NCBI GenBank assembly: GCA_008632985.1
Contig: QPGO01000206.1
Span: forward strand, 1-64,000
Reading direction: 5' to 3'
Length of the DNA stretch: 64,000 nucleotides
DNA from: Psammoneis japonica
Taxonomy: Eukaryota
In this document: positions 6,250 to 47,510 of the stretch, piece after piece
How positions within the stretch are numbered: position 1 is the stretch's first letter
How the letters are laid out: the number at the start of each line of letters is the position of its first letter
Notes under the pieces: generated by a model
Seen by the model: the letters and a program-made list of their open reading frames with translations, nothing else
Told to the model about the DNA's origin: nothing
The model's database searches: none
Program-made: the position numbers and the translations under genes

Positions 6250-9125
6250 GGCCCTACAAGCTCGACGGTGAAGTCCCGGAGACAGCAGTGTCAGGACAGA
6301 CCGCCGACATTTTGCACATGTGCGAGCTCGGATGGTGTGACTGGGTCATGTTCAGGGACACGGCTGTCTCATTCCCTGAAGACAAGGAGGTCCTGGGGAG
6401 GTGCATGGGCCCCAGCAGGGATGCAGGACCGGCGATGACCACCAAGACACTCAAGGAAAATGGACAAGTCATCCACAGATCCTCTGCCCTGCCGGGCTCT
6501 TGCCCCAGAGGAATGGCATCACAAGACGCACTTGGCGTTACGGAACAAATTTGATGCCAAGGCAGAGGCCAAGCTTTGTCCCAGGATGACCATCAGCGAC
6601 ATTGACAACCCCAATGTGATCACTCCCACCTTTGATCCATGCAAGGACGACTCAGAACAAGACCCATCTGGTGCCCCAGAAGCTGACACGCCAACTGACG
6701 TGGCTCACAACATCTGTGTGAATGCAGAAGTTTTGCTGCCACATGGGCACACATGCCAGACCGGCAAGGTCAAACGGCAGAAGCTGAAGCCGGACAGAAC
6801 ACTGGCAGGACAAGCCAATGCCAAACCCATCCCAGACATGCGCGTCTGTGAGGTGGAGTTCCCCGACGGTCAGGAGGCAGAACTGGCAGCCAACGTCATT
6901 GCTGAGAACATGTTTGCTCAGTGTGACAACAAGGGCGACCAGCTGGATGCTGTCGTGGACCACAAGAGCAATGAGCATGCCATCCAGAAACAAGACGCGG
7001 TCTCCCAGGATGGCAGAGGGCACCGATTCACTTGGAAAACAACCAAAGGATGGCACCTTTGTGTTCATTGGAGAGACGGTGTTGCCTCTTGGGAGCAACT
7101 TGCAGATTTGAAAGAATCAAACCAGATTGAACTGGCTGAGCATGCCAGGGCGGGATCTGTTGAAGATGAGCCCACCTTTGCTTGGTGCATTCCACATGCC
7201 TTCGAGAAGCACACACAGATTGTTGCCGCTGTCAACAAGCGTCAACTCAAGCGGACACAAGTGCAGGACACGTGTTCCCAAGACTTGTGAAGAAGCCGTC
7301 AAGATTGATGAGGGAAATGAGGACCGACAATGGCAAGATGCTGTTGACAAGGAGATGGGCACAGTCAGAAAAGCCTTTGAGGTTGTTGACAATGATGAGA
7401 ATCTGGTGGGATGCCAGCATGTCAGATGCCACTTGGTCTTTGATGTTGAACTCCAAGACTTCAAGCACAAGGCCCGCCATGTGGCAGGGGGGACACACTG
7501 CTGAACCTCCGGCTGTGATGACATGTGCCAGTGTTGTCTCTTGTGAGAGTGCAAGGATTGTGTTCACTCTTGCTGCCCTCAACAACCTTGAGGTTAAAGC
7601 CGCAGACATCAAGAGTGTCTGCATCACCGCTCCCAACAGCGAGAAGATGACTGTGACTCTGGGACCAGAGTTCAGACCTGATGCAGGTGAGAGAGCGATT
7701 GTCCAGCATGCCCTTTGTGGATTGAAGAGTGCTGGCATGTCTTTCAGAAATCATTTGGCCCAATGCATGTGACACTTGGGATGGCTGCTGTGCCTGGTGG
7801 ACCCTGATGTCTGGATGATGGAAGAGGTCCGACCCAATGATGGGTTCCTGTGCTGTGCCTGCGCACTGTTGTGTGTTGATGACATTTTGATGGTGCACCA
7901 CGATGCCACATGTGCTCTAAAGGAGATTGAACAACACCTCAAGATGAAGCCCAGTTAAACGGGTGATCCCAAGATGCATCTTGGAGCCAAGATCCGCAAA
8001 GCAGAGCTGCCGAGTGGTGTCCATGCTTGGGACATGAGTTCCAGCAAGTGCGTCTCCAACAGGCTGTCAAGAATGTAGAGGCACATCTTCATGCAAAGAG
8101 CCTGGGGAGCAAAGACGTTGCCGTGCCGGGCAACGGCCCCTTTCCCATGTGACTGTCAACCCAAGGTTGACACCACGCCTGAGCTGGATGCCAATGAAGC
8201 CAAGTTTTGCCAGTCACAGGTGGGTGTCCTGCACTGAACAGTTGAACTCAGATGTGTGGATCTCATTGCTGAGGTTTCCAAGCTTGCCTCCTTCCTCACC
8301 ATGGCAAGGGAGGGCCACCTCGAGGCTGTCCTGCATGTGTGTGCAGGTGCCTCAAGCAAGAACAGGCACAACACCAGGCTGGTGTTTGATCTGACACATC
8401 CAGACACAGACATGTCTGACTTCAAGGAATGTGACTGCAAGTCATTTTGTGGGGACGTCAAGGAGGCGGTCCCCGGCAATGCGCCAATCCCTCCAGGCAA
8501 GGAGGTTGATCTGCACCTGTTTGTTGACTTTGATCATGCCAATGACAAGTTGACAAGGCATTCACACATGGGCTTTTTCATTTGCTTGAACATGGCTTTG
8601 GTCACATGGTTTTCCAAGTGCCAGAGCACCATTGAGATTTTGGTCTTTGGTGCCAAATTTGTGGCCATGAAGCAGGGCATGGAAGCCTTGCATGGTCTGA
8701 GGTGCAAACTGCGAATGATGGGCACACCATTCTTGTCTGGTCCGTCCTGCATCCATGGTGACAACATGTCTGTCATTCATGACACGCAGAGTCCTGAGTC
8801 TACTTTGAAGAAGTTGAGCTCGATTTGCCACACCATGCTGTTAGAGAGTTGGCAGCAATGGGTGAATCCCTCACTGGACACATCCGACTGGAATGCAATC
8901 CGGTGGACATCACCACTGAGATCATGTGCGGTGGCATGAAACAAGATGGACTTGTGAGCATGATGCTTCACGAGGGATTTGCAAAGTTCAGAAACCACTT
9001 CCCTCATCCCATTGGGTTTGTTGCAGGTCACTGGGGTTTCCTTGTTGCCTTTGTGCAGCCAAACATGACCAGACTGTAAATTGAGTCAAGGTGACTCAGT
9101 GTCTGCCTCATCAACTTGAGGGGAC
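6250..9125 (+). mobile_element. 5'-truncated, hypermutated Ty1/copia (CoDi-like) LTR retrotransposon: end of integrase, reverse transcriptase, RNase H, polypurine tract
   Basis: YKLDGEVPET..GWCDWVMFRD; TTKGWHLCVHWRDG..SWEQLADLKES; CHLVFDV..FKHKARHVAGG; HALCGLKSAG; LLCVDDIL (YVDD, 7872-7883). RNase H: FVDFDHANDKLTRHS, WFSKCQSTIE, GDNMSVI..PESTLKK. PPT-like TTGAGGGGAC at 9116-9125. Confidence 0.92.
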
Positions 9126-10190
9126 CAAACAATTTACCATGTGGAATTGTGATGCAGGAATTTGTGTGTTCAATGTAGAATTTTGTCAACAATGTGGACT
9201 CAATTTGTGTGCCAAGATGAGCTCACTTCTTGAAAACAGCAGCATGATGTCGACTCACACCTTTTCTTTTAGTCTGTTCCCCAGCTCTCACCTTCACAGG
9301 GTGTTTCATTCAGCGATCTTTCACTCATGCTTCCTCCTGTTGCACTCAGCCTCTGCCATGCTTCGTTGCTCACCGTTTCCAAAGCGCTGCTGTTTGTCAC
9401 CCTTGATGCACTCTCGTGCAACAGCAATGTCAAGCAATGCTTCCCACAACAGCACACAGAATGACACATTGTAAATCCATGAGTGGGGGCCAACTGCGCT
9501 TCTAAAAAAGCCTTTTCTTCATCACAGCTTTTCCCATGTGCAGCATGCTCCCCTGATCTGTTGGATGAAGATGACAAATTTGCTCGGTTGGAGGCTCTCA
9601 CAGCATGCCGCAAGGAAGGAGCTCCTCTGTCAGAAACTTGTTCCTGTGCCGTGGAATGGCGAGTCCAACAATCACCAGAGTTGTTCAAATGGCAAATGTT
9701 TGCAGTCCTCATGGGCGCGTCCTGTTGACTTGGAGCAATGTGTGATGACATGAGAGTTTGAAGCATGGAAGGCACAGAGGTCATTTTCATCCTGGTGCTG
9801 TTGTTGCCCTCACTGATGGTTGCAGCATGTCATGTTGTTCAGTGTCAAGCAAGTCACCCTCTGCTGACATCCTGAGCAATGCATGATGGCTTGTGGGCTG
9901 ACAGCAGAGATGGCCCACAGCAACCTTTTTTTGAGAAATTGGCAAGAAGCTGCTGCTTGAGACTGTTTGAGATTGTGCTTGCTGAGCTTTCTTTTGTCTG
10001 AGCTCCACTGCTGGCCAGTCCAGCACAAACGTGGGTGCTCCTGGCTGGCACATTTTTTCAACAACAAGCCGTGTTCTCCTGGCACCTCCCACAGCGGTGT
10101 TTGAAGAGATCGTGAGTGTGTGTGATGAAATTCTCTCATCCTTCAGCTCCCAGTCCACATTCTCATAGAGAGATTGCAGAATTGTAGAGT
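6260..10190. other. TpA-depleted hypermutated block 1 (copia relic plus unidentified decayed sequence)
   Basis: About 13 TA dinucleotides in 6260-10160 by eye, none in 6541-7594. For comparison, the 60 bp at 481-540 alone contain 6. Confidence 0.95.
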
Positions 10191-25709: not shown

Positions 25710-26005
25710 GGTAATGAATGTGAATGAGCATGGTTGGTTTTTTGCTGCGTCGGCGGCACGACGTTTTTGTACTCTGTACTTTGATGCACAAGTAGAATTT
25801 CTACGCATGTCAGACTCCGGCCGATCGAAATTCCGCGATTTCGGACAGCACACGCACCAAAGAAGGAAAGAACTGACTTCAGAGCGAGACGATGAAGATT
25901 TCAGATTTCAAAGCAGCGCGAGGAGCGAGGCAGGTTCACAAGAGTTGGTTGCCGTATTCATAATAGAAATAGGCCTATGATAGAGGTATTTTCGAAAAGT
26001 AGAGT

Positions 26006-27019
26006 ATGAAATCCGTTGTACCAATTTCATTCCTTGCCTTGTGCCTTCTTTTAACATCGGAAATCGACGCCTTCATCGCCGGTTGCCGTGTTCAGTCGAT
26101 TGTCAAGACGCGTACACGCCACGGTTTCTTGTTTCAGACGTCGCCACCACCTACCAAGTCAGATCCACGAGGATAGCAAGCACGGCGTTGTTTGACAGTT
26201 TTGGTGGCAAGTACGTCGGCTTGGCTCTGACACCCATAAAGAAATTAACCGCTGTGGCTGTGTCGTTAGTTTCATGGGTATTTGAGGAAATCGTCTATGG
26301 GCTTAGCAAGAAGCAGAAACTTTTATTTGTTGGTGCTTTTCTTACTGGGTTGCTGTTTGGTCGAGTTCGTCCCTTCTGGCAACGGTTCTTATCGACTTTG
26401 GAAATACCCGCCCCATACTTTGATGCCTCGGGCAGCGCAACAGCACTCAAGGGCCGAGTTGCTTCTGTCAGTGACGGCGATACCATTCGCCTGCTTCACG
26501 TCCCAACCATGTTTCATCCCAAGGCGATTAACAAGAAGAAGCAAAAGCTTTCAGAGACAACACTACCTGTAAGAGTGTGTACGATTGACACACCTGAAAC
26601 GGCAAAGTTTGGTAAGAAAGGCCAGCCGTTTGGTGTAGAAGCCAAAGAGCATTTAGCAAGCATGTTGGAAGACAAGACGATCTTTGTCAAGCTTCTTCAG
26701 AAAGACCAATACGGGCGCATTGTTGGCCAGGTTTACACCAAGAATTGGGGGCGAAAGAAATATGTAGATGAAGAAATGCTCAAAGCTGGCTTTGCTGAGG
26801 TGTACCAGGGGGGTGGTGCAGTCTACGGGCCAAAAGGAAAAGAGTATTACGAAGAATTGGAGGCGGTAAGTGATTACATTCAAATCGATGCCTTCTCGTG
26901 CCTGTCGAAGAAAGCTAACCCATGGCTTGGCGTCGAAGGAAGCGAAAGGCAAGAAGATAAACATTTGGTCTCAAGGAAAGCGAGAATCGGCGGCGGAATA
27001 CAAGAAGCGAAACAAATGA
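26006..27019 (+). CDS. Staphylococcal-nuclease (SNase/LCL3-like) protein with a signal peptide
   Basis: MKSVVPISFLALCLLLTSEIDA-F presequence. Motifs: GRVASVSDGDTIR, IDTPET, GQPFG.EAK, KDQYGRIVG, MLKAGFAEVY. Intron 26866-26938; a possible intron at 26082-26137 would join the presequence. Confidence 0.85.
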
Positions 27020-27177
27020 TTGCTTTTGACGAGATAGAGATGCTTGCACCAAGAGTAAATTTACACTGCAGTACTCGAGCTAGAACACATAAAGAGAGGC
27101 AAACACAAAAACAAGCATAAGTAATAGTTCTTACTAAAGCCGCTCGAGAGCAAGAACAATTATCGTAACAAAGAGTA

Positions 27178-29050: not shown

Positions 29051-30371
29051 CGTCACGTACCTGGAAAACCCGTGTGGAAAGGTTAGCTTCGTGACTTGAC
29101 AATAACAACTGTAGCACGTTCCTTTTGCAACGTCGGAGGCAAAAGCAGTACTGTACAGAAGTGGAAGCCAACCTCCAACCGCTTCTTCCCTCTCGGTCAC
29201 GGAATTTTTGGAAAAAATGAGAAAGATGCAAAAAAGATCCGGATCTTTTTGTAGCACTATCGCACTGTACGTACAATGCTTACGTATCAATGTAGGGCGA
29301 GCCTGCCAGCCACGTGGACTGTTTACAGCAGGGCCTCTACTCTAGCTACCGTAGCTAGAGGGCCCTACATATTACGATTGATCCTACGTACGTCGATCCA
29401 TACCACCATCGACGTCAACAATTCGGCAATTTTTTCATATTCGTGGCCGGTTAACGGAAAAGGGAAAAAAGGAGGGGATTCAACCATTCGATGCACACAA
29501 AAATTGACCATGCAAGCAGGGCCAGAGATTCATTGGCTTCTTCTTTGTGGTCTGGGGTGGTTGCCGCAGGGGCAAAAGCTGGGTGCACATTGCAACTTCA
29601 GGGTGACCATTGGCTCAAAGGCTGCATCTGGGGAGGGCCAGGGAGAAGAAAAACACGCAAGCTTGGCTGCTTGCTTTTCAAACCCTGGTGTGTTGTCCTG
29701 AGCAAGCTCTTGAGAGAAGAGTGAGAGAGGTTCTGGCTGCATTGCTGTGCAGAGAGTTTTGTTGCTGGCATGTCTCAGGTTGTGCACTCAGCATGCTCAA
29801 TGACTCTTGGGCCCAACCTCACTCAGAGCTTTTTTGTGCCAACAGCAAGCTCAAAGTTGTTCTGCTGTGCCAACAAATGACAAACACGAGCTTGAGGAGG
29901 CTTGTGTGCAATTTTGCAGCTGTGGCATTGGGGGTGCCAATGACACAAGCTCCTGCCAGCTCCAACCTTGGCTCAGGGTTTTGGAGACACTGGTGTCTCT
30001 TGCTCAGCTGTGAAAAGCTGTGGCATGTGGGGTCAGCATGCAGCCCAGGAGCCAGGCTGCCTGCACTCCTTTTGCAGATGGTGCAAAGTGCTGTTGTGAC
30101 TGCACAAGGAGGGCAACTCTTGTGGTTGTGCTGGTGTTCTGAAGGTGTGGGTGTGCCCCTGGGAAGCTGCAAATGAAGAGCTCAGCATTGCCGCCAGCAC
30201 CAGATGTGCATTGCTGCCCTCTGTGTCTTGTGGTTCTGGGAGCCTGCAAACTCAAGTTGGGCATCTCAGCTGGTGCAGCTTGGCAGACCATCTTGATTGG
30301 AGCCTGGCATGGAGGAGGGAAACATGCAGAAAAGTTTTGCAGGAGCTATTCTGTCAATGGTGGCTGGGGCA

Positions 30372-30972
30372 GCCTGGGTTGTGGGAACTTTCTTTTGATG
30401 GAAGCCAAGCAGCCACAGCAAAAGAAGATGTTTTTGTGACTGAGCATCTGACAGACATGGTTTGCACACAGAGAGCTGTCCTCTGCTCAAGCTCCAGTGA
30501 GCAGCGTGCTCCAAAGGTGACATTGCACACGTGCTTGTGCATCAAAACATGTGCCTCTTGCTTCAGACCCCATGTGCAGCACGGCTGTGTGGAGAGGCTT
30601 GTTGCAGGCACATCTCACAGGAGGTCTCATGCTTGGCTCTCAACCTTGGTTTTAATTTCTCAGCTGGCAGCTCAGCAAACAGTCGTGACTGCAGCTTGGT
30701 TTGTGGGTGGCGCTGTTGCCAAGAACCACTCTGGGGGGGAGGGGACAAGCAGAAGGGTTTTGCAGGAGAGCTGTTTTGTCACGAGTGCTCAGGATGGCCT
30801 GGGCTGCTGCAGATTTTGTTGATGAAAGCCAAGCAGCCACAGTGCAAGAGAAGATGATTTTGTGATTGAGCATCTGAATGACAAAGCCCAGGCATGTGGA
30901 GAGCTGTCCACATGATCTCAGCTCCAGCAAGCAGCAGGCTCCAAAGGCAACATTGCACGGGCGAGCTCGTGT
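30372..30972. repeat. Diverged ~170-bp direct repeat pair (30372-30540 and 30797-30972)
   Basis: Both copies share TTGATG(G/A)AAGCCAAGCAGCCACAG, GAGCATCTGA, GAGAGCTGTCC and CTCCAAAGG..ACATTGCAC. Confidence 0.8.
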
Positions 30973-31436
30973 GCCAACAAGAAGCCTCAAGCTGTGAGTC
31001 ATGAAAAAGCCATCAACCTCCCAACCAGCTGCAGAGCCAGCCAAACCATGTGCCACTTGAGGGCCCAAGGTTCAAAACAAGAGGGGCGCATCAACTGTGT
31101 TCTTGTTTTGTGTGCTCAAGAGCCTTTTGTTCTCTCTGCAAGTCTTTGGCGTGTGCTCGCCTCTGTTGAGTGTGGATTGAAAGGATGCTGCAATGCCAGA
31201 TGGGTTGATTTGTCTTTGCTGCAAAAGGTGTGCATTGTCCACTTTGATTGGATGCCCATGCAGAGATCTGAAAACCAGCATTGTTGCGAGCATTGAATGC
31301 ATGGAGAGAACACCAATTGACGTTTCCAAATGAACATGTAAATGCTGCAGTCAACTGGTGCAGAAAACACATGATGATTTTGCATTTGACATCCTGTTTT
31401 GTCTGTTCGATTTTACTTGTGCCCACAACTCTACAT

Positions 31437-31560
31437 CGTCAACCATTTAGCTGTCTTTGTGCCGAAGTAGAAATTTTAATCAGGGGATTTCGTCAACCAT
31501 TTAGCTGTCTTTGAGCCGAAGCAGAATTTTTAATTGTGGAATGTCGTCAACCATTTGGCT
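31437..31560. repeat. 54-bp tandem repeat, about 2.3 copies
   Basis: CGTCAACCATTT at 31437, 31491 and 31545. Confidence 0.85.
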
Positions 31561-34470
31561 CACTTTGGCTCAAAGTAATTTGTCATGTGGGTCATGGGCT
31601 TGTCATTGACCAGCCACCATCATGAAATGACCAATGTTGCTGTTGCTCCAATGCAGCTGTTGCTGTTTGGTGTGTTGTTGCAACTTCAACACGGCACTTG
31701 CCATGGCAGATTTGATGCCTTTTCCACAAATGTCACACTTGACATGTCAATTTTGGAATGCAAGTGCTTTTTGGAAATGTGCTGTTGAGTGCTGCACTGC
31801 AGTGCAAGCAGCAGCATGTGCAAAATTGCTGCCGGTGCATCGTGGCTGATTTGAGAGCCGACGCACTCCCAAAAAAGATGGCAGTCCCCACACACTCACA
31901 AGAGCCACAGGTGCTGCTGCAAAACATGCAGCAATGTCCGTTGGAAATGAAAAGGAGCCTTGCAGCATTCTCAGCCTCACTTGCTTGTGCTGTGAAAGGT
32001 CTTGTTCATCATTGTTGTTGACATCATCCACAGCTCCATTGTTTGTTGAAAGAGCAAGCGACTCTTTTCCCACAAGCACACAGTGGCCAAGACAGCTCTC
32101 ACATGCAGGTCAGTCCATGGCATCAAAACTTCTGCAAGGTGTCACTTCTTGGTCACACCTGTTGCCTTGCCTCCATGAAAGTTGTTGTCCTTGCGCCTCC
32201 ATCATTCATGCCCTTGGTCATGGTTTTCTCCTTTTTCAAGTCAAACTTGGGTGGGACCTGGCACATTTGAAAGTTGAGTGCCAGGTGATCCTGAAGGTCT
32301 TGAAGCTGTTTCAAGAGTTTCTTCTGGATTGTCCCCAAACTTCTGCAAAATCCATGTGTTCACAACAAAGAACAGAACATGAGAAGGTTTGCTCAGCAAC
32401 AACTGCACACGTCCAGAGCAACAACAAGTGTGTGCATGGAGCTTCTTGCTCTGTTGCATTGAAATTCTGTTGTGGTGCTGGTTTGATCAACAGTGATTGT
32501 GGGGGCATCATTGGAATCTCAATGCCTCTCATGCTTGGCAAGGAGACAGCAACAGTTTGCACAGTCTCAATGCTGACAACGCCATCATGTTTTTTAATGC
32601 CGGTGATGGCAGAATGCAGAATTTGCTTTTTCATTGCACATGTTCAATGTCACAAACATTTTCACACCCTGGCAGTGAAGTTCATGCCACTGAGATCACT
32701 TGTGGACTCTTGCTCTGACTTGCTGTGAAAGACAGCACCAATTGTGGTGCACACTTTCTGCTTGCTTCACCTGCTGCATGCAGACTGCAAACTGCAGGTG
32801 CAAGAACAGGTCTGTGCATGTGGACCAGTGCCAGGAAAATGTTGCACAGACAGTTGCTGTGCAACAGCTTTGTTGCACACTGTTGCTCCACCCACTTGCT
32901 TGTGTGTTGCTGACTTTCTGGCAACACAGAATGTCTTCTCTTTCTTGCATGGTTGGACTCTGTCATCTTTGTCACAATGCCTGCATGGGCACCATGTCCA
33001 AGATTCTGACAGAACAGCAAATGACTGGCTGGTCTGGCACAACCTCAAGTGCAATGCAATGTGCCAAAAATTTCACTGTGCATGTCTGCCATGATGACAT
33101 GATGCACACATCCCAGACCCTTCCAGTGTGCTGAATGCAGCAAGATCAGCAGAGATGAATGACCCGGCATTGGCTGCATGCCCCACGCAAATTTGTCAGG
33201 TGTTGGCTCATTGCCTCATTGTTCATGAGAAGATCATTGTGCAAGCACTCCTCATGACGAATGATTTACTGTCAAAGTTGAGCAGGATTGGCTGTTTGTT
33301 GACTCTGCACTTTCACACATGGTTTTTTCATTTTAGATGCATCCTTGCATTCAGTTGGATGAGTTGGCGTTGTCACGTCATGCAACATTCATTGCCTGTT
33401 GTGTGTGTGTTGAGCCATGTCTTGGTCACAGAAATTTCTGGCAATCTGCAAACTGCAACAGCTGACACCAACAACTGTGCCATCCATCACAGACCCCACT
33501 CTCTGCTGTTGTTGTCCCTGTTGCAAGGATGTGGCGCTCCATTGCACCCTCTGTTCTCCCTCTCTTTGTCACAATTGACAAGCGTGGTTGCTGTGTGAGA
33601 AGTCATCCCAGAGGCTGTTTCAATTGTTGGAGTTGTGAAGCCACAGATTTGCTTTGGACTCTCAGAGGATTGGACATTGCCAGTGCTGAGATCCTTGGAA
33701 CTCACATCAATTGCATTTTCAGTGCTGGCAACAAAGAAGCCACCTGTCACTCTGTCCTGTGAAGCTTTTCCCCACATTTGGCTCATTTGAGGAGGTCCAT
33801 GGGAGGCAGGTGGCTTCAGTGGAGAAGAGTGACACATGTCCTCTTGGCCAAATGACGCTGGTTGTGGAGTGTCCCAGTGTTGATGCTCACCTGGGAAACC
33901 CTCTTTTGGAGTTGTTCTCTGTGGAAGTTGTCAAGAGGGCACTTCAGAATCCCTTGTTGGTGGATCCCCAAAGCCCCTAGACAGAGCTGACATTTGGCTC
34001 CTCAATTTTGCTTGAATGCACCACCTGCATGTTGTTTGCAGCTTTGGCTGCCTTTCCCAGACAAGGCATTTTGGTTGATGACACTGAGTTGTGCCTTTCA
34101 TTCTTGTGTGGCTGCAACTGCATGGAGTTTGTTTGTTCTCATCTTGTCCAGATGGACCATGAGTTCATGCTCAAGCTGCAATGTGGCATGAATCAGCTTG
34201 TTTTTTTCTTGCAATGTGTTTCCCTCCTTTTACAGACAGGGTCACTCTGCTGCAAAATCTTGTCATCACATGCAGCATCTGCAAAGTCACATTTGGCATG
34301 CCATCAAACTTCTTGCTGCCAATCTTCCTTGCTGCTGATCCCTTCAATTTGTCAGGTTCCTGCACCTCCATCATTGAGTTCTTGGTCACCAAACACCTCA
34401 AATTAAAGTCACTCACATCATCCAGCTTGGTGTTGTCACACAGGGCATTCCACCATCCATTTGCATGCTT

Positions 34471-34783
34471 TCTCTCTCTCTCCTCTCTCTCTCTCTCGAA
34501 CAACGAATGATCAAAATTGGCAAAGCCAATTTTCTGTCAAATGTGACAAACAACAGCAACACAAGTGGCCAAGGTGGAGCTGCTCAATCAGACATTCATC
34601 CAACCATTTCAGCAAATGGCAGGCACAACAATGTTGGCTGAAGTCAGGAGAATGAGACTTTTGTGGTGGCTTCATCAGCGGCCGGCTGTTGTTGTCATCG
34701 TGCGGTGGGCATTGTTGCATTAAAAAGATCCAAAGAAGGACAGACAGGTTGATCAAATCGATTCAATTCAAGTCAAGTTGTCA

Positions 34784-34817
<34 letters not shown>
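34471..34817. repeat. Two (CT)n microsatellites (34471-34497 and 34791-34817)
   Basis: Read directly from the sequence. Confidence 0.9.
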
Positions 34818-37516
34818 CAATTCTCTGGTTGGAAATTCCCTCATGTGCTCTGGTGCCATGTGCAGCCCCTCATGGCTTCTGTCCAAGTTGATGGAAGAAT
34901 GGTTGATTTTGCAGTCATGTGGAGCCTTGGGCCTGTGATCAACATGTCCATGGAGTGCTGTCCTTCAACAGGAGTCTTCTGATGCCTTGCAGGTTTCCCC
35001 ATGCTTTGTGGTGGCCTTGAACACCAAGCACTTTTTCTCTGCCTGCACAGGAACCACCATTTGATTGTTGCTGTTCATAAAAGACCTTCTGAAGTTGTGC
35101 AACTGGATCAAGAAAGACATGGGCATGCAACCATGCTTCTCTCCCACAGCTCCTGGTGTGCAGGACTGTTTGCAAAGTCACCAAACCTGCTGGCATCCTG
35201 ATGAGTGAGCTGGTGCACAGGTGCTTTGGTGTCTTCCAACACTGGGTGTCCACCAAACAGTGCAAAAATTCCATCAAACCCCAAGTGGTGTTTCTCAGGA
35301 ACCACTTGGAATCTGTCCAACCACCTGATGTCAAAGTTGCTTTCTTTGAAGGCTTTGTAAATCTGTTTTTCATCTGGCCAGTGTGGAGCTTGCTCCTCAC
35401 TCATGCTCAATGCATTTGACATGTGCAGCAGGGATTGTCTCATCAGCAGCACTGCTCTCCAGTGTTCCCTCTTGCTCTTTGCAGTTGTCCAATGGCAGAA
35501 ACTCACAAGCTCTGCTGTTGTCAGTCTTCACCTGTTGGACTCCAAAGTTGATGTGCTTTCCTGGTGATTGTGCTGCCAAATTCATGGCTTTGCACCTTGC
35601 AACTGGTTTGTCACAAGTGTCCTTCAGAATCTCATCTTTGTTGCATGGCATCACTTCACAACCATGGTTTTGCATGCTGGCAGATTGCTTCTTGTCACAG
35701 CAGAGTTTTTGTTCATTGCAAAATGCCTGGGTGGCCTCAATCTCTGCTGTGCTTTCTTTGTGATTGAACCTGTCACCAGCCACAAAAACCAACTTGGCAT
35801 GTTTCACCCTGGACTGCACATTTGCAAAGCACTGCATTGTCATCTCTCCAGGTGTTGCTGGGGAACCATTTCTCCTTCTCCTTGCAAGGGTCATTCTGTG
35901 AAGTGTGTTTGTGACAATGTGAACACCTTGGTGTGTGCTTCTTGGACAACGCAGCTGCGCAGTTGTGAAAGGACAATTGCTCAGCAGCAATTTCTTCTGC
36001 TGCCAACATGCACACCAATTTCTCACTTGTCTTTTTGTTTTGTTGCAACTTCTTCACCATCCAATTGCAAACAAACTCCATCACCAAATGTGGCTTCTGC
36101 CATGTCTGAAGCCACAGCTTTGCCCCAATTGGGAGCTGCATTTTCTTCAGCAGCAGCCACAGAAAATGCAGCCACACCCAATGCTGGGTCAGCAGCTTCT
36201 GCTGCATTCTCTGATGCCATTGTTTGTTGTGCACGCAACTGCACTTTGCTCCCTCACAGCAGCGGGTGGTGCTGCTTCCTTCCTCAGTTGTGTTTTGTGT
36301 GGTGGCAGTGAGTGCCAGTTTGTCTCTTGTTGGTGGTGGGTTGCTGAAACATTTTTTGTCAGATCAGGCCATTGCTGATCTGGCATTCAAGCACGCACAT
36401 TCCACTGCCAGTCATTTGTAAAATGATTTGTGGTCAACACCAGATCAGCCTTTTGCTGGTCTGGTGCTCCACTGTGGTTGCCCCCCAATCAGCCTTTTGC
36501 TGATCTGGTGCTTTCACTGTGCAGCACCAGCTGTGGGTCTCATGGAAGAAGATTTTTCATGTGGGTGAGCATGGCCTCTTCAACAGAAAACCCAGCTCAT
36601 TGCTGCTTGGGAAGAACCCCACTGCAGAAGAGTCCCATTGTCTCTTGGACAATGGCCATCTCTGGCTGTGTCTTTGTTTGACAATTGAGCTGATGCAAAG
36701 CACAATGCAAGGCAGCAGCACAATTGAGGCAGGAGTTGAGATTGCCATTGCCAACATGAACTTGGAAACTCCAGCTTGCAAAACATTCACAGCAAAACTG
36801 GGAAAACTTGCATTTTGAGTGCAAGGTGGTGTGGACTGCCCTCCTTGGCAAAAACTGACCAAGACACAGTTTTGTTGAGCATTTTGTTGTTTCCATCTTT
36901 CTCATTGGCCCAAACTCTGTCAGCACCTTCTGCCAACACTTTCATGAACCACAGTTGCCCCATTGTCACTGGAAGTTGCTTTCCATCATGGTGCTCATGT
37001 GCAAGATGATGCTGAAGAACCGCGGTTGAGTTGAGAGCTGCTTCCCCAACTCCTTTCTGTGAGCAAACACATGTTGCCTGTGAGTCTCTCCCATGCCTCA
37101 ACAACTCTCCTTGAACAGCAAACAGTGTGTCATTTGTCCTTTCAGAGGGGAAGATGAAATCACACATGACAATTGCCAACCTGTTGGAACACTCCAAACA
37201 GACACAGTGGAGTGAACTTCTTCTTGGGTTGATTTTAAGACCACACAAAGACATCCACCACAAAAAGGGCCATGTGGATCTGAGGGTCAATTGGAAGATG
37301 ATGATTTTCAAACAACAATTGTGTTTCTTGTGCTTCCTGAGGGTGAGCCTGGTCACAGTTTTTCTTGGAGATCAGCTTGAGTTCATTTGTGCTTGTTGGC
37401 AGTTCATGTGATTTAATTGCAAGCTTGTTTGCAATCTCTTTGTGCTGAAAACATGGAAGTGAAAACAATGACTGGCCTCATCTGCTTGCCAAAACACCGC
37501 TGCAAATGCACTTTGT

Positions 37517-38441
37517 GTTTGTCACATCCTCAGATGGCTGGCCCAGGAATTTCCTCATTCTGGCAGAAGCGTTGTGGTGCAAAAACAGACAACATCACAC
37601 CCTCCAAACATGCTGGGTGCTTTTAAAGTGTGTCCAAGGGATGGGGTGAGCCAGCCAAAGTCAAAAGAAGTCAGCTGCACATGTGTCCTTGGTGGCCCAA
37701 TGGGTGTTCATCACATCCTTGATGGCTTGCCAGGAATTTCCTCATTCTGGCAAAAGCACTGTGGTGCAAAAACAGGCACACTCTCCAAACACACTGAATG
37801 CTTTCAAAGTGTGACCCAGGGATGGGGTGAGGCAGCCAAGGTGGAAAGAAGCCAGCTGCACGTGTCCTTGGTGGCCTGATGGGTGTTTGTCAGATGCTCA
37901 GATGACTTGCCAGGAATTTCTTCCTCATTCTGGTGGAAGCATTGTGGTGCAAAACAGACAAGGTCACACTCCCCAAACACACAGAATGCTTTCAAAATGT
38001 GCCACAGAGATGGGGCAAGACAAACAAAGCAGAAAGAAGCTGACTGCTGTGTGTGTCCTTGGGGTGGCCTGATGGGTGTTCATCACATCTTCAGATGGCT
38101 CACCAGGAAATTCCTCATTCTGGTGGAAGCGTTGTGGTGCAAAAACAGACAAGGTCACACTCTCTGAACACACTGAATGCTTTCAAAGTGTGCTCCAGGG
38201 TGGGGCAAGTCCACCAAGGTAGAAAAAAGCCAGTTGCATGTGTCCTTGGTGGCCCAACTGGTGTGTGTTTGTCAGATCCTCAGATGGCTTGGCCAGGAAC
38301 TTCCTCATTTTGGCAGAAGTGTTGTGGCACAAAAACAGACAAGGTTGCACCCTCCAAACACACTGAATGCTTTCAAAGTGTGCCCCAGGGGTTGGGTGAG
38401 TCAACCAAGGTAGAAAAAAGACAACTGCATGTGTTCTTGGC
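37517..38441. repeat. Satellite-like tandem array: 5 diverged copies of a ~180-193-bp unit
   Basis: The CCAGGAA..TTCCTCATT anchor lies at 37543, 37730, 37910, 38103 and 38293. Copies also share TGTGGTGCAAAA(A)CAG, GAATGCTTTCAAAGTGTG and TGTCCTTGG. Confidence 0.92.
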
Positions 38442-41231
38442 ATCACAAGCAGTTGGCCATTTCAGTTTTTGGCAGGCAAAAGTCTGTCTGTCACCAAATG
38501 CACCCATTGCAAAGACCTTTGGACGTGCAGACTTTTTGGTGACACACAATGAATGATGCTTGCCAAACACAATGTGACAAGTCTGGCAAGGAGTTGCCAT
38601 TTTGGCTTTGACTGGAGAGCCACAGAAAACCACTTAAAGCCAACATTTAAAGCAAAAATTGTGGACAAGGTGATGACAAATGCAATCAAGCATTTTTTCT
38701 GGTCTGCTGTTCTGAAGCAAGGCAAATGTCATGATTAATTTTTTCCCTGAGGTTGAGCTTTTGATGATCCAGGAAACTTGCAATGGACAAAGAGCAACAG
38801 CTGAGAAAGCACTGGTGAAATTTGTTGCAGCTCTTCCTTCTGTTCCTGTGAAATGACTGAAACCAAACCAAGTCATTGGCTGGTGGTCCATCCCAATGGG
38901 TTGGAAGAACCAACCTGTGCAATGTCCATTGCCAGACCCTGCAACTCAATGGTTTTGTTGTGAAATTTCTGGCTGCTGAGTTGGCGAACCTTTTCCTTGT
39001 CAAGAGTGCAAGAACCTGCAAAGCTTTGCAAAAGAAAAAGGCTGCCTTGCACCACAAGTCAGGCCAGGTCCAGCCAACTGTTGTGCACCAACATTCGCTG
39101 GGAAAACATTGGGCAGAAAGGATCCTGGTGCCTGCAGGGGAAGGGTTGCAGGATGAGGTGCAGCAGCAATGATGTGAGGGCTGCATTGCACTGCAAGAGA
39201 TTGTTTGCAGCCAACTGCACTGCATCAATCCTTGGACAAGCAGTTTGATCACCCAATGACTGCACAAAGTTGAGAAGCTCAGCACAATGGGATGGATCAG
39301 CCCAATCTGTTGCCAGAAAAAACCTGCAGTTGGTTTTCAACAGTCTGACTGGAAAATGACATTGTGCAGCTTTTTTGCAAAAGGCACTTTGGATTTTTGC
39401 AGCTTGAATCACATGACAAAACAAGAAGCATCTCCTCCTCAAAGTGCTTCGCACACACCAGAAGAGACTCCTTTCATCAACCCTGTTGGTCATCTTGCTG
39501 TTTAGAAGGCTCTTGCTTTGTGCTCTGCTCTAAATTTGGTTGTCCACACACATCCATGTCTTGTTCCTCTGCCTGAGATGATGGTCATCCAAAATGTCAT
39601 TGGCAGTGCTTGCAGAGTTCTTCGGTGTGCTTCTCAGATGCACGCTCCTTCATGTCAGTGACAGGCAATCATTTTTGTGTCCTCTCTTTTGCCACCACCA
39701 ACAACAACTCACATGGGAAAGGCAAGTCTGGCTGGGAGAGTGACACCCAATGTCTGCTTGTTCACCTCTTCCACAATTTTCTTCTGGCCTTTCCACAAGC
39801 CAGTGTGAGACAGAGAGGTGCAAGCGGCAGGAACTGGAGGAGTGAGCTCCATGGTTTTTTCATGGACTGTGGATTGCCCAAGTTTTGCCAAAAAATGCTG
39901 TTGAATCTGCATCACAAGGGAGCAGGTGAACTGAGTCAATCCCTGTGACATGGGCACAAACCAGCAAGAGGTGCTGCAACAAATGAAGTTGTCACAAATC
40001 TCATCTTTGAACCCAGCCAAATGATGAAACCAACCACCATTGGTCTTTCCTTTGACTCTGAAAGCAAGACTCTTGTTCATGGAAAAGCGAGACAACATCC
40101 TCCAATCTTCAAACAAAATTTCAAAGTCTTCCACATGAGTGTCTTGGCAACCATCAAACAGGCTGCAACATGAGTTGCTGCAAAGACCTGCAGTGTGCAT
40201 CTGGCCAAACCATGAATGGCATGATTGACAGTTTTGCTCAGGACATGACGCGTGTGTCCCAAAGATCAGAAGAGAGCAAAGGTGGCTTGGAGTTGGCCTG
40301 ATGCCCACTGGCAGTGCTTTGTTGCTCAACCCATTTCACAAGGAGGTCTTTGTGTTTCTGCGTCAACATTGCAAGTTCAGTGTTCCAGCATTGTGGCATG
40401 AACTGGTGAAGGACACAACCCTTCCCCTGCTCTGACAAGTCAAGACAAGCTTTGCACTGGTCTCTGCAATTGCTGTTGTTTCTGAGCTTTCCAAACAGGA
40501 TTGAAAGAGCTCCTGCACAAATGTCAGCAAACCCCTTCTTGGTGGTGTTAGTGCAGCCCACACACTGAGCAGGATCACTGCTTGTGGTGTCAAGGACAGG
40601 TCACAAGAGATGTTGTCCACAAAAGAAGATTGCAAAGGCACTTTGAATGCCCTTCAACGATGAAAAACAAATCCTGGAGGGAGGGCTGTGAAACTGTGGG
40701 ACACTTGCTGCCACCTGGAGGGTGTGCCATGAAAATCACCATGGACTCACAATCACCCTTCATGGACAAAACCTGCCACAGCTTCTTGCACCAAACCTCA
40801 CAATTTTTCTCAGATGTGGGGGCACCTGAAAAAGCAAACCTGGGGAAAGCACAAAGCCTCCAAGATTTGTTGCCGGCTGCTGAGGATTCATTGACCTCAA
40901 CAAGTGAATCCCCAATGCAAGATTTGGCCCTGCAAAAGGTGTTTGCATGAGAGGAGCTGGGGTTGAGGAACATCTCATGATTGCCACCACAAGAATCAAG
41001 CCATTCCAAATCAAAGGGATAAAGGGAAAAACTGCACTTGGAGGCAACAGCTTGGAGGCCTTCCTTGACTGCATGCAAAAAGTCTGGAAGGCAAGAAGGA
41101 TTCCCATCATGAACAGACCACTTGCAACTGGGGTCATTTTTCCAGGGATGACCAGCCTGACATGCGATGGTTCCTTGGCATTGCAAATGCTGCTGCAGGG
41201 AAAGAGAACTTGCCTTGGTGTGCAGAGGAAG

Positions 41232-41235
<4 letters not shown>

Positions 41236-41269
<34 letters not shown>
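41236..41269. repeat. (AG)n microsatellite
   Basis: Read directly from the sequence. Confidence 0.95.
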
Positions 41270-41271
<2 letters not shown>

Positions 41272-41739
41272 GTGAAAGAGGAAGTGTGACAAAAGCAATT
41301 GGATCAGACATTCACTGATCTGGCACAAACAATCAGTGGGCTGCAACCGCATTAAAAAAAGAAGAGATCATCAAACCTCATGCATGGGTGATTGCACATG
41401 CAAATTGCCGTTGAACAAGAACACCAGTGCTTTTGTGCCAGACCGGAAGATTGCCAACTTGGTGCAACTCCATACGAAAATATCCACCTGTGCCAATGCC
41501 ACCATCGACGTCACCAATTCTCACTTGTCAGAGATTGGTCTTTGCCCCACTCAGTTCTTAGTCAAGACAGTGCGATGGGCCCAATCTCTAGAGTAGAGGG
41601 CCTGCAGAGAGTAGGGCCTCTAGAGCGAGTATTCTCTAGAGCAGAGACCAGAGCTAGAGAGATTGCCCCATACTGTATCATAGCTACTTGCTACAGTATC
41701 TCTAGCTACGAGATGTGGATGGATGAATCAAGATATGTG

Positions 41740-42163
41740 AAGTGCAATCTGAGCTAGAGCTGCTAGCATCGGTCCGATAGAGCAGAGAGAGTACCTCATC
41801 TTCTCTATTACAGGTAGAGACAGAGAGTTTTTGATCTATTGCCTAAAGGTAGCTGCTCTCTATTAGCTTCTTCCATCCGCGCTGCATGGCCCAACGCATG
41901 ACGCATCATGACGAGCAAAACGTGTGCAAAGTGAATTTATCACCAATACCATAACTAATCTCATCAGCCGTAGACAGTCATGAGCTCATCACATCGCTGC
42001 TGAATATCCAAGGAATTACACACTCACCACACACCAGTAATTTTCCGAACGTCCTTGAGCTTTGCGGCTTCCTCCAGGGCTCGATCCCACATGCTAGCCT
42101 CGCAAAACTTTCTTCGACCGAAATCACGTGGTCGATAAAACGCGTAGTGTAAGACACGTCTTG
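41740..42163 (-). pseudogene. Diverged duplicate of the VPS16 last-exon end and 3' flank (source 54242-54681)
   Basis: Colinear with the source; for example AACTAATCTCATCAGCCGTAGACAGTCATGAGCTC and SMWDRALEEAAKLKDVR occur in both copies. Small deletions. Confidence 0.92.
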
Positions 42164-42324
42164 AAAAGCAGCAAAGGGCTTCCCTCACCATTTTTGCTTG
42201 TGAAATGCTATTACAGGTTGGAGGTGACGGCATCTAAATTCTGACAGGAATACAGGTACAAAATACCCTGAAGTGCATAGAGTACCGCTGGCAACCCTAC
42301 CACCCCACTAGAGACAAAGAGAAT

Positions 42325-42790
42325 TACCAATGTCGTTGCTGCTCCAACGCAACTGCTACTTTTTGGTGTGTTGTTAAAATTTCAACATGGCACTTATGGT
42401 AGATTCGACGACTTCTTCCACGAACGTCACCCTTGATTTGTTAATTTTGGGATGCACATTCTTCTGAAAATGTGTGGTTGCGTGCTGTATTGTAGTGCGA
42501 GCGGCAACATGTACACAACCGCCATGGGCGTTATCGTGGCTGACTTGAGAGCCAAAGTACAAAGACGGCAGTCCCCGCACCGACAAGAGCCGTGGGTGCT
42601 ACTGCAAAACACGTAATGATTGTTGGAAAAAATGAGGAGACTTGTAGTATTGCCGGTCTTGCTTGCTTGTGCTGTGAAAGGCCTTGTTCATCGTTGTTGT
42701 TGCCATCATCCAGGCCTGAAAGTGCACACAATTCTCATCCGCCAAGCGCACCAAAGCCAAGATGGCTCTTGCATGTGGAAACATAGTTGT
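42325..42790 (-). pseudogene. Fragment of an unidentified, probably membrane-protein gene; unmutated paralogue of 31625-32110
   Basis: Colinear nucleotide similarity with 31625-32110. Peptides NNDEQ.LSQHKQ and CFA.AP.ALV occur in both copies. Confidence 0.6.
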
Positions 42791-43634: not shown

Positions 43635-46600
43635 TTTAAATTTTTATTTGAAAGATACTCTTTCGTTTTGTCTTTTTTTTGCCAGACGTGAGCCTTCTTC
43701 TTCAACCTTGCTTGCACACCTCGTTCAGTGTGATCATCGAGCGAGAGCGAAGAAGTCAAAAATTCTATTGACGCATGGACAGACCGTGTTGGAGGGAGTT
43801 TCTGAATTTTCGAAATCTTTAGTACGAATGCCTCTGTAGATTGTACGCGCGAGGTGTTTTTCATTGTGTTCGCCGTGCATCGAAACGCGTCTTTGATCGC
43901 TCTCGCAAATCGCAGAAACAGCGTTGCTCTCAGCTACGGCATCGTCTGAGCCCCAAAATAAAATACATCACAACAAACCAACAAGTGCACTGACATGATG
44001 TGCCTGGTCCCTTCTGTGGACTCGACTGACTGCTGTTGCAGTGACAAGCCTCGAGAGTCCACAAATGCGGTCACACCTGGCACATTGTTGACACACGAAA
44101 AAGGGCTCCAGTCCGATGAATTGATCACCCGTTGTTGCACGATTTGCCACATTGTAGACGAATCCAGTGTTGATGTTGAATTCTTTGTCAGTGGCTTCTT
44201 CCCCAACAAGGGACCAAGGATTGCTGCAATTCAAAAAAATTGTGAGGGATCAAAAGATGGAAGCGCTCACGCAATTGGGACCTGGACCTGACTTGTCACC
44301 TTTGGCGCGGGCTGCTTTAAAGGTGTTTTCAGTGCTTCTGAGCTGGGCACAATGAGGAGAAGTGGAGACTCCACAAGAAAGCAGAGGTTCAAATGTGTGC
44401 ACACACCTTTCCAAGGAATGACCATGAGCAACTGCAGCACACTTTGGCCACAGCCGGGCTGCAAAGAATGAACTCCATGCCGCAAAATTATGTTGCAGTG
44501 ATGCCTCATGTGGATCAAGCAGAAATGAGCAACATGCCAGCTTGAGCATTGCATCAAAGAACAGAAGGATTGGCGCTCCCCACCTCTGTTGTTGATTTTT
44601 CCTCTTGGTTGTTGCAGGGCTGACCCAGGAAGAAGAGTCACCAGAATGGGTTGTGGCCACTGTCTGTTTGGCTCACATTGATCCTTCAAATTTGCACCAC
44701 CAGTGTCTTCTGTTTTCAAAGAGGTGTTCAGGTCCTTGGCAAAAAGATGTGGACACAGAGATTGCAGCTGTGGTGCATCAGCTGGAAACTTGTCTGCAAA
44801 ATTTGTCAAAGGATGAGCCACAGACTCAGTGTGCAGTCATGCACCCCACTGTGACAGATTTGGGCTTCACAGTCTCATGGCAGGAGGATGCAATTGCTGG
44901 CTGCCATGCTGTCAAGTGTTGCATCATTGTGCACCCTGGGTGATGCCCGCAACCCACACATTCACAGGTGGCAGTTTCAAATTGATGCTTTTCAAACAAA
45001 CCTCATTTCACGCAGCAAAAATTTTTTGCACCTGTCTTGCAGCAACCCACTTTTGGTGAGGGTTGAAATGGAGGGCAAACCTCAAGCTTCAAAAAATCAC
45101 AATGCAGAAATGCACAGAATCAGTGCCACAAGTTTTCCATCACAGGAAAATCAGCTCTGCTGTGCTGAACTGCCAAGCCCTCACAATCCTCATGCTCTTT
45201 GCAGAGTTCCCCCCCTTGGTGCCATTGCAGCCATGCTTTTTGTGCCATCAACTCAACACATGCGCTCTTGCTCATGTGACCAACCCACCACCCAGCTTTG
45301 TTCAATGCATGATCTGAAGATGTTGTTGCGCATGATTGACGTTCATTGTCAAGGGTGTCTGTAAGAGCATCTAACAATGAGCACTTTTGTGGCAGGCGTG
45401 TTTGTCAGCCAATGTGCACATGCTTCAAACAACCTGCTTCTTGTTCCCATCACATTGTTCTTGACCAATGGTGACAGCGAGGGTTGAGTGTGGTGCATGT
45501 GACTGTGCAGCATGATTGCAAATGTGCTGTGTGTGCAACACACACAGGTTGGCAATGACTGATCACATGATTGCATGAGCTGCTGTGTGCAACATTCTCA
45601 CTCAGCAACCTCACAAATCGCCCACACATCTGCCTTCTCCAAGATGACATCAGCATGGAAACTGCACCCCAAATCCATTGGCAGTGCTCTGTGTTTGCAC
45701 ATGCATGATGCAAAACATGTCAGAATGGCAAGTGCTGTGGTCGTCAATGAGTGTCAAACTCAAGCTGATTCTGGGGGCATCTCACTCATCAAGCATGAGC
45801 ACATTTTGTGCTTGCAGATGTTTGCTGGTCATCCCTGACTCTCAGTTGGATGAAAACAGATGTTGCACATCTTTTGTGGACAAAGCCATTGGCACTGTCT
45901 TTGTCTCTGCATGCAGTGACAGCTCTGACAAAGTGAGCAAATTGTCCCATGGTGGCTGCACATGCTGGAGTGAGGCTGAAAGAAAAGCTGTGACAATGAG
46001 CTGCCGTTTTTCAAGAAGTGAGATCCCTGCAAGCCTCCTTGTGTGCAGAGCTGTGTCTCCAATGCACCATGCACATGGCCTCAACATCATTTTGTGCAAA
46101 GTTGTTTTTTCATGAATGTCGCGCAATCACATGGCAAACTCTTCAATTTTTGAAAACATGGAAAAGCCACATGAGCTGGTTTCTTGCCTGGCACATGGGT
46201 CCACTGTGTTTGATTGGTGCTGTCTCAATGCCAAAGATTTCCTCACAAGCATTGCACCACATTTGCTGCAAACCCACTTTTTCTTGCAGGTTGCTTGAAG
46301 CAGCTCCCCGCCCACCTCTGAAGAGAGCAGCACACTGAAATGAGCTGTTGCAGCAAGAAAATCACACTCTCTAGTCAGAGCTGTCTCCAGCTGCCATGTG
46401 CACTTCATCTCCCATTTCAGCTTGAACAGCAGCACTGCTTTTCTCTCACACAGAGCCTGGCTGCACTTCCAAGAGAAACCTTGCTGGAGGTGGCTGGAGG
46501 AGCGCATCATCACCAAACCATGAAAGAATGGCAAGAACTGCTGAAAACCCTTCTTGCTCTGTTTGGCAATTGCCTCTGACTGGTGTTCACAAATGAGCTC

Positions 46601-47309: not shown

Positions 47310-47510
47310 CTGATTTGACAAAGGTGAAGGGCACGCACATGTTGCTGTGCAAGGCCAAGACACATGCCATGTTCTTTGATGGGGTGGCGAACATTCAGAA
47401 GGCCACAAGAATTGTCGAGGTGGAGTTTCCCTGGGTTTCCTGTCCACATGGTGCCAAGCATTGCATGGCACTTTTCTTTGAAGATGTGGCTTGGCTGAAA
47501 CCCGTTGATG
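47310..47510 (+). mobile_element. hAT-superfamily transposase fragment (DUF659-like)
   Basis: MFFDGVANIQKATRIVEVEFPWVSCPHGAKHCMALFFEDVA resembles the DG-A-N-x-K ... H-x-x-x-H-x-x-x-L-F-F-x-D segment of hAT/DUF659 transposases. Confidence 0.65.

Follow-up and report, generated by a model that had tools for sequence, protein, structure and literature searches.

Context bias of residual TpA sites in TpA-depleted blocks of a Psammoneis japonica contig

The window analysed here is a stretch of 64,000 nucleotides from the diatom Psammoneis japonica (assembly GCA_008632985.1, contig QPGO01000206.1, positions 1 to 64,000 of the forward strand). It holds four blocks from which the dinucleotide TpA (TA) has almost disappeared, the first of which is a truncated copia-type transposable element (TE). 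The TAs that remain in these blocks are concentrated in TAAA and TAGA or in their reverse complements TTTA and TCTA (TARA and TYTA, where R is a purine and Y a pyrimidine), and this context bias is real and far beyond what chance would give. The TAs were lost by mutation of TpA to TpG or CpA. We consider it probable (about 0.7) that the residual sites are the slow tail of a TE-directed hypermutation acting at the DNA level, in which the flanking bases set the rate of change.

Residual TpA sites and their flanking bases

The depleted regions were spotted in 500-base windows, and their borders were then placed by the positions of TA and CG. The ratio of observed to expected CG (CG O/E) is given for each block:

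6256-10165, + strand: block 1, 5′-truncated copia-type element; 13 TAs in 3910 bp; CG O/E 0.34
29456-41472: block 2, TA- and CG-depleted; 34 TAs, 30 in TARA/TYTA; CG O/E 0.11
43965-53885: block 3, TA- and CG-depleted; 18 TAs, 12 in TARA/TYTA; CG O/E 0.15
58423-62485: block 4, TA-depleted with CG partly lost; 21 TAs, 13 in TARA/TYTA; CG O/E 0.64

The right edge of block 1 is uncertain and lies between 10165 and about 10250. In 500-base windows, TpA O/E is 0.00-0.16 inside the four blocks and about 0.4-0.9 elsewhere in the window. CpG O/E in the blocks is mostly 0.0-0.4 and reaches 0.87 in block 4, while TpG and CpA stand at about 1.3-2.3. Taken over the four blocks, TpA is down by about 93% and CpG by 77%. 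The strand-symmetrised frequencies (in percent) are as follows:

TA: flanking DNA 3.83; 35 related elements 4.17; blocks 0.29
CG: flanking DNA 5.94; 35 related elements 5.56; blocks 1.37
TG and CA (each): flanking DNA 7.20; 35 related elements 7.39; blocks 11.20

All other dinucleotides shift by no more than about 1 percentage point. The losses of TA and CG (about 7.7-8.5 points) equal the gains of TG and CA (about 7.8 points), and GC content is unchanged at 0.46-0.54. Among the dinucleotides ending in A only TA is depleted, and AA, CA and GA are not; AA makes up 6.29% of block 1 and 6.27% of the related elements, and AG 6.46% and 6.05%, respectively.

The residual TAs of block 1 are:

6539-6540: TACG, the exception
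7595-7598, + strand: TAAA
7916-7921: TCTAAA, slow flank on both strands
7956-7959, + strand: TAAA
8076-8079, + strand: TAGA
8799-8802, - strand: TCTA (TAGA on the - strand)
8842-8845, + strand: TAGA
9077-9080, + strand: TAAA
9133-9136, - strand: TTTA (TAAA on the - strand)
9176-9179, + strand: TAGA
9268-9271, - strand: TTTA (TAAA on the - strand)
9472-9475, + strand: TAAA
9501-9506: TCTAAA, slow flank on both strands

A sequence-only reading of this DNA had placed 12 of the 13 TAs of block 1 in the four tetramers, and the recount reproduces every position it listed (7595 to 9503), with 6539 as the sole exception. Its extension of the bias to the other blocks also stands (30/34, 12/18 and 13/21 in blocks 2, 3 and 4), and the sites it named there, at 33978, 35358, 38220, 38411, 49188 and 59657, are correct. 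Over the four blocks, 67 of 86 residual TAs lie in TARA or TYTA, against 299/1308 (22.9%) outside the blocks. Five in-block sites are tandem-repeat copies of other sites; when these are dropped the count becomes 63/81, with a Fisher odds ratio of 11.8 (p = 1e-23), and each block is significant alone (p from 4e-14 to 6e-4). The TAs found just beyond the border of block 1, at 10166 and 10185, are both in TAGA.

A second null was drawn from TEs, namely 50 metagenome-contig loci that encode relatives of the block-1 polymerase; only block 1 is family-matched by these loci. TARA and TYTA hold 2090 of their 9612 TAs (21.7%), with a per-locus range of 14-32%. The sequence-only reading had put the background expectation at roughly a quarter, which agrees with both nulls, and had proposed a comparison with TE sequences; in that comparison the residual contexts depart from background (67/86 against 2090/9612). 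None of the 50 copia relatives is itself TA-depleted: whole-locus TA O/E runs from 0.52 to 1.09, with no 500-base window below 0.2. Across these loci the TARA fraction is not correlated with TA O/E (Spearman 0.15, p 0.31). In the closest relative, with a TA O/E of 0.52 and a CG O/E of 0.41, the TARA fraction is ordinary (41/230). TAs that have no RA flank, one or two occur at nearly the same density in the copia loci and in the host flanks (33-35, 8-9 and 0.5-0.6 per kb, respectively), and thus the two nulls agree.

Survival was expressed as the density of residual TAs relative to the null density, the ancestral counts being taken from these proxies. It is 0.02 for sites with no RA flank, 0.24 with one and 0.48-0.62 with two. 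Where the other flank is not RA, survival by 3′ flank is 0.32 for AA, 0.16 for GA, 0.10 for AC, 0.06 for CG and 0.05 for AT. The remaining 3′ flanks survive at 0.03 or less, with TT, TC, CT and TG near 0.006. The base at +2 is read specifically, as TAAA survives at 0.32 and TAAG at 0.02, and TAGA at 0.16 and TAGG at 0. The survival of TARA also varies with the base on its 5′ side (T 0.62, G 0.28, C 0.18, A 0.08), in an order that roughly mirrors the +1 order of the opposite strand, where A is slowest and T fastest, except that C and G change places. Two survivors outside TARA, at 6539 and 59406, both lie in the octamer GTTACGGA, and the survival of TACG (0.06) ranks fourth among the contexts.

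The dependence on flank is strong for TA (chi2 171, df 11, p 7e-31). For CG the corresponding value is chi2 16.9 (p 0.11), which supports the conclusion that the flank bias is specific to the TA-loss process. The sequence-only reading had described the context as refractory and as a signature that could identify the enzyme. The bias is indeed TA-specific and strand-resolved, however TARA sites are slow and not immune, and no enzyme is named by it.

Direction and strand of the changes

The direction of change can be read from the polymerase of block 1 and from a repeat pair in which one copy lies outside the blocks. The polymerase was delimited with 17 full-length homologues from a profile-free search, and the tblastn alignment spans three frames:

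6255-8968, + strand: copia polymerase homology (C-terminal part of the integrase, reverse transcriptase (RT), RNase H), frameshifted; tblastn with 17 full-length homologues

The TA-free zone of block 1 and this homology begin only a few bases apart. There are 18 positions at which at least 60% of the aligned homologues carry Tyr; block 1 has Cys at 14 of them, His at two, Gln at one, Gly at one and Tyr at none, with TGY or CAY as the codons. In the RT, block 1 reads CVDD in the place of the YVDD of copia RTs. Conserved Ile positions have become Val in 10 of 18 cases, a change that would fit T|ATH to T|GTH (H being A, C or T) if the preceding base is assumed to be T. At conserved Arg positions block 1 has His or Gln in eight cases and Cys in two. 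A purine on the + strand is the changed base in 22 of the 26 Tyr and Arg cases of this polymerase, to which either context or chance may have contributed.

The repeat pair consists of the following copies:

31626-32030, + strand: mutated copy, inside block 2; 76% identity to 42322-42712
42322-42712, + strand: unmutated counterpart, outside any block

The 14 aligned TAs of the unmutated copy correspond to CA (nine), TG (four) and GA (one) in the mutated copy, and none is kept. Its 19 aligned CGs correspond to TG in nine cases and CA in seven, with one kept. Together, the replacement of Tyr by Cys or His and the changes in the repeat pair show that the blocks once had ordinary TA and CG contents, which were lost by transitions. 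The unmutated relative of block 2, about 400 bases long, sits in normal DNA, which suggests that the process passes over copies that are short or isolated.

Loss of CpG behaves differently. In block 4, CG O/E is still 0.64 while TAs outside TARA have fallen to 1.97/kb against about 30/kb expected, so that TA loss runs ahead of CG loss; CG loss lags behind TA loss in block 1 as well. We infer that CpG loss is a separate, slower and flank-independent process, most simply the deamination of 5-methylcytosine in silenced repeats.

The products of TA loss depend on the 3′ flank. Tetramer densities on both strands of the blocks were compared with each null, half of the CG loss being assigned to each product. 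Next to a 3′ RA flank the raw gain of TG is 0-6/kb, which is at most half of the CG loss there, and that of CA is 5-17/kb. After correction for CG, TA-derived TG amounts to -1.3 to +0.4/kb and CA to 6-11/kb, which is all of the loss. Next to a 3′ YY flank the raw gains are 14-31/kb for TG against 6-18/kb for CA, and the corrected gains 13-23/kb against 4-5.5/kb. The pattern holds under both nulls. For block 1, the strands were examined separately with 19 homologous polymerase regions in the same orientation as the null. On the + and - strands, respectively, YY flanks show TG gains of 14.3 and 17.5/kb against CA gains of 5.9 and 8.5/kb, and RA flanks show TG gains of 0.0 and 3.1/kb against CA gains of 4.9 and 6.2/kb.

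The flank effect therefore acts per strand: TAYY goes to TGYY, and TARA goes almost only to CARA. The excess of Tyr to Cys over Tyr to His (14:2) is an instance of this effect, since in Tyr codons a pyrimidine follows TA. That excess had prompted consideration of a global strand bias, as expected of editing on the sense strand, which is rejected because both strands of block 1 behave alike and every block has about as many TG as CA. A strand-resolved preference of this type resembles what a base-flipping enzyme would give.

Proposed process and competing explanations

The process that we propose would convert A:T to G:C at TpA on either strand of transposon-derived DNA, with a catalyst that reads at least four bases on the attacked strand. 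Described from the adenine, a 5′ T would be obligatory, a pyrimidine at +1 would be good (YY at +1 and +2 especially), and A or G-A at +1 would be very poor. Described from the thymine, the equivalent rule would make RR-T-A good and TY-T-A poor, and sequence cannot separate adenine-centred from thymine-centred chemistry. A TARA site would be barred from becoming TGRA; attack on the opposite strand, giving CARA, would be its sole route of loss, and it would decay more slowly. With the loss of ordinary TAs at about 98%, most of those left are in TARA or TYTA. A dedicated enzyme (an adenine deaminase or a thymine-modifying enzyme), action on integrated DNA and a role in genome defence are inferred from these patterns.

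Several points weigh against this account. About three quarters of the expected one-sided TARA sites are gone, and TAAA to TGCA and TAGA to CAGA are each seen in the mutated and unmutated pair, so that the context does not confer immunity. When four flank classes are modelled as acting additively and per strand, the fit is poor (deviance 30, df 6, p 4e-5). There are 57 one-sided TARA survivors, against about 24 estimated additively from the survivals of two classes and about 33 if RA is fully refractory. Heterogeneous exposure among the blocks would bias the result in the direction opposite to this excess. The bias may thus be enlarged by the 5′ side of the target, by reading of the duplex or by a small amount of re-created TA. 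The nulls are proxies, with a family match for block 1 and no Pfam family for blocks 2-4, and the 50:50 split of CG products is shaky given His and Gln at eight of the conserved Arg positions and Cys at two. What is observed is a signature in the sequence. The per-strand reading is kept despite the misfit of the model because of the product asymmetry.

One competing explanation holds that the residual TAs are not survivors, and were instead newly made by context-specific G>A change at TGRA (equivalent to C>T at TYCA). Conversion of TGRA to TARA predicts a shortage of TGRA as well as the proposed process does, and TGAA and TGGA show some of the lowest enrichments of any TG tetramer (1.30 and 1.18, compared with about 1.4-1.9). 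New TAs arising at random from the 6701 TG and CA steps of the blocks would place 25.5% in TARA or TYTA against the 78% observed; unbiased creation thus fails, and a second context-specific process would be required. The excess of TGYY products would also be left unexplained. Ancestry of a residual TA can be followed directly in a single column, in a tandem array of block 2:

37515-38440: 190-bp tandem array, 4.9 copies, inside block 2

The column that contains the TAGA sites 38220 and 38411 reads TA, TA, TG, CA, CA over the five copies. As TG and CA do not interconvert in one step, an ancestral TA gives the shortest account of this column and takes fewer steps than re-creation. A second column, with TTTAAA in one copy and TTCAAA in four, is ambiguous and is as re-creation would have it. 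The density of TARA, given with CG O/E, can be compared among the blocks:

Block 4: 3.20 TARA per kb at CG O/E 0.64
Block 1: 3.07 TARA per kb at CG O/E 0.34
Block 3: 1.21 TARA per kb at CG O/E 0.15
Block 2: 2.50 TARA per kb at CG O/E 0.11

TARA density drops as CpG decay advances, which fits decay of old sites better than accumulation of new ones, albeit over four points only. Re-creation as the source of the bias is therefore judged unlikely.

The bias could also stem from recognition or protection of the duplex, through a rigid TpA step or a bound protein that shields both strands. Such shielding would account for the protection by one RA flank beyond the additive per-strand prediction, and for the survival of two-sided sites at 0.48-0.62. 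However, TARA is lost to CARA and not to TGRA, and so the two strands are not equally protected; nor does simple purine stacking predict the specificity at +2 (TAAA 0.32, TAAG 0.02). We regard duplex protection as an improbable explanation of the whole effect.

Changes made on RNA or complementary DNA (cDNA) before integration, by ADAR-like or APOBEC-like editing of a retroelement copy, appear very unlikely, even though the TA-free zone of block 1 starts where the copia homology starts, as would naturally follow from editing ahead of insertion. The gains are the same on both strands of block 1, and TG and CA occur in about equal numbers in each block. Editing would have to come close to saturation to remove about 98% of ordinary TAs, and the flank preference of ADAR is described as weak (PMC11156358), unlike the strict 5′ T and the disfavoured TAGA seen here. 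In the chlorarachniophyte Bigelowiella natans, comparable mutations are reported to arise in integrated DNA during culture (10.64898/2026.01.13.699255).

Another concern is that heavily modified bases were miscalled or misassembled. The window was compared with contigs from X1, a public run that contains 92% of the sampled words and that is possibly the assembly's own data, which makes it weak independent support. Its contigs match the window across the blocks. One X1 contig of 5323 bases, over 44175-49490, differs from the window at 21 letters, far below the number of TA and CG sites that the block is missing. Block 3 as a whole differs by about 0.4%, and the genes show 0-1 differences per contig of 0.8-2.3 kb. 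Among the 40 block-3 differences listed (there are 93 more), there are 19 at which the contig has CG (14) or TA (5) and the window TG or CA, as a miscall of modified bases might produce; the reverse occurs three times for CG and never for TA, and 18 of the 40 involve no interchange of TG or CA with CG or TA. Alleles, paralogues, ongoing hypermutation or residual assembly error could each lie behind this asymmetry. Copies of one tandem repeat carry TA, TG or CA in the same local context, unlike a systematic miscall. The pattern also recurs in other assemblies: P0224 and P0239, two metagenome copia fragments known as proteins only, have 0% Tyr and 5.7-6.2% Cys. Both read DPTHP and FCG or FCS where relatives read DPTYP and FYG, and P0239 alone reads LRCKLRMMG for LRYKLRMMG. 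Hypermutated copies of this kind thus exist beyond the window, and an artefact as the cause is most improbable.

The weakest alternative makes the A:T changes a by-product of error-prone patch repair by Pol eta, whose errors favour A>G at WA (W being A or T), after deamination of 5-methylcytosine in methylated repeats; TA and CG loss do co-occur in the blocks, yet AA and AG frequencies are unchanged, the process is TA-only and in block 4 TA has decayed far more than CG, so that this alternative can scarcely be right. The comparison with the Pol eta signature that the sequence-only reading had suggested accordingly finds no match, WA being excluded because AA is unchanged.

Known systems and neighbouring sequence

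Full-text literature searches found one description of TpA-specific DNA hypermutation, a 2026 preprint on B. natans; among the results listed for searches with diatom as a term, none describes TpA hypermutation in diatoms. In mutation-accumulation lines of B. natans, 231 of 302 nuclear point mutations are reported to fall in two regions of integrated viral DNA (Mettrop et al., bioRxiv 10.64898/2026.01.13.699255). In hypermutation of this type the changes arise de novo in resident DNA, about 1000 times faster than background. All but one of the 231 are A>G or T>C, and all changes towards GC are at TpA (10.64898/2026.01.13.699255). The main text of the preprint proves no enzyme and describes neither CpG loss nor context beyond the dinucleotide (10.64898/2026.01.13.699255). 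The window resembles that system in its transitions from TpA to TpG or CpA, seen here at the Tyr positions (Cys 14 and His 2 of 18) and in the repeat pair (13/14). The B. natans mutations are confined to foreign-derived regions; here block 1 is copia, blocks 2-4 match no Pfam family, and block 4 has an open frame of 329 amino acids. The differences are that B. natans is a chlorarachniophyte with de novo events, whereas this is a diatom with a fossil signature, a flank rule and joint CpG decay. Most likely, the window holds a case of B. natans-type hypermutation in another lineage of the stramenopile, alveolate and rhizarian (SAR) group, to which the flank rule and the joint CpG decay are added.

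Fungal repeat-induced point mutation (RIP) offers another parallel, with regional and near-saturating transitions in repeat or transposon DNA, a dinucleotide preference and sharp borders. RIP acts by C>T mainly at CpA and so creates TpA (PMC2621366). It is rejected as the process here, where TA falls from 3.8-4.2% to 0.29%, CA and TG rise and GC content is kept. As a tentative possibility, diatoms and chlorarachniophytes may have in common a RIP-like defence of opposite chemical direction, in which a dedicated enzyme reading four bases acts on silenced mobile-element DNA. Such an enzyme would be either a deaminase that naturally acts on adenine in DNA or one that oxidises thymine to a mutagenic product.

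Adenosine deaminases are a source of comparison for the adenine-centred description. The TadA/ADAT family is reported to have U or T 5′ of the target adenine at 100% for tRNA A34 and at more than 70% in fungal mRNA editing (PMC11156358). The same source gives A or G at +1 and +3 as favoured in fungal Tad2/Tad3 mRNA editing, with UAG and UAA often edited (PMC11156358). The comparison with TadA suggested in the sequence-only reading thus gives a mixed result: the obligatory 5′ T fits a TadA/ADAT-type enzyme, but the +1 preference is opposite, as a pyrimidine is best in the blocks and A and G-A are poorest. Known TadA/ADAT substrates are RNA loops, whereas the blocks are chromosomal DNA. ADAR is described with a weak flank preference, against G at -1 and slightly towards G at +1 (PMC11156358). 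An ADAR-type imprint is rejected, as the blocks need a strict 5′ T, TAGA is among the poorest substrates and both strands are equally hit.

The thymine-centred description has its own parallels. In dinoflagellates, TET/JBP enzymes make 5-hydroxymethyluracil (5hmU), preferring TA and TC, and the modification marks and silences transposons and repeats (PMC11572971); the parts of that paper on 5hmU mention no mutational outcome. Both this system and the blocks prefer TA, whereas TC is not visibly depleted in the blocks. A T>C change at TpA, which on the other strand is A>G at TpA, matches C>T at CpG in its geometry when read from the thymine. The decay of CpG by deamination of 5-methylcytosine is seen in the same blocks as CG to TG or CA, and differs from the TA loss, which is flank-dependent and faster.

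The occurrence of TpA erasure in a diatom as well as in a chlorarachniophyte means that the process may be widespread among SAR protists. The strand-resolved flank rule provides a falsifiable fingerprint by which candidate deaminases or TET/JBP enzymes can be accepted or rejected. If real, a natural enzyme that changes A:T to G:C on double-stranded chromosomal DNA would matter to the biology of genome defence and to base editing. For annotation, blocks of this kind hide transposons: Tyr turns into Cys or His, TAA and TAG stops vanish and Pfam is nearly blind. A search of 146 stop-to-stop frames of at least 90 amino acids from all blocks gave one weak RVT_2 match, in block 1, and no family above threshold in blocks 2-4; four other sub-threshold matches were taken as chance. 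The 329-amino-acid frame of block 4 (60152-61138, - strand) is intact. By eye it resembles leucine-rich repeats, and it matches no Pfam family at E of 0.01 or below.

The surrounding DNA is eukaryotic, as the open frames of the window encode FYVE, DnaJ, SNase and Vps16-like domains. The top named relatives of the SNase-domain frame (25984-27120) are all diatoms (Seminavis, Nitzschia, Epithemia, Fragilaria and Cylindrotheca), at about 47-60% identity. Contigs of a second set, X2, skip stretches of 75-92 bases bounded by CT..AC within 54575-57353 on the - strand. These are GT..AG introns on that strand, and X2 therefore looks like RNA. It covers genes between the blocks and almost none of blocks 3 and 4, which is not evidence of silence.

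Some repeats in and near the blocks have features of their own:

61091-61938: 381-bp tandem repeat in block 4; copies 97-98% identical

The copies of this repeat carry identical residual TAs, and so the duplication postdates the TA loss. At 31251-31700 in block 2 lies a less depleted island, where a patch of 240 bases holds 10 of the 34 TAs of the block and a 54-base tandem repeat. Beyond the right ends of blocks 2 and 3, at distances of 260-350 bases, lie the copies of a 447-base repeat (41735-42163 and 54237-54681; 87% identity), which is TA-rich and not TA-depleted. The stretch 41540-41860 is packed with CTAGAG/TCTAGA units.

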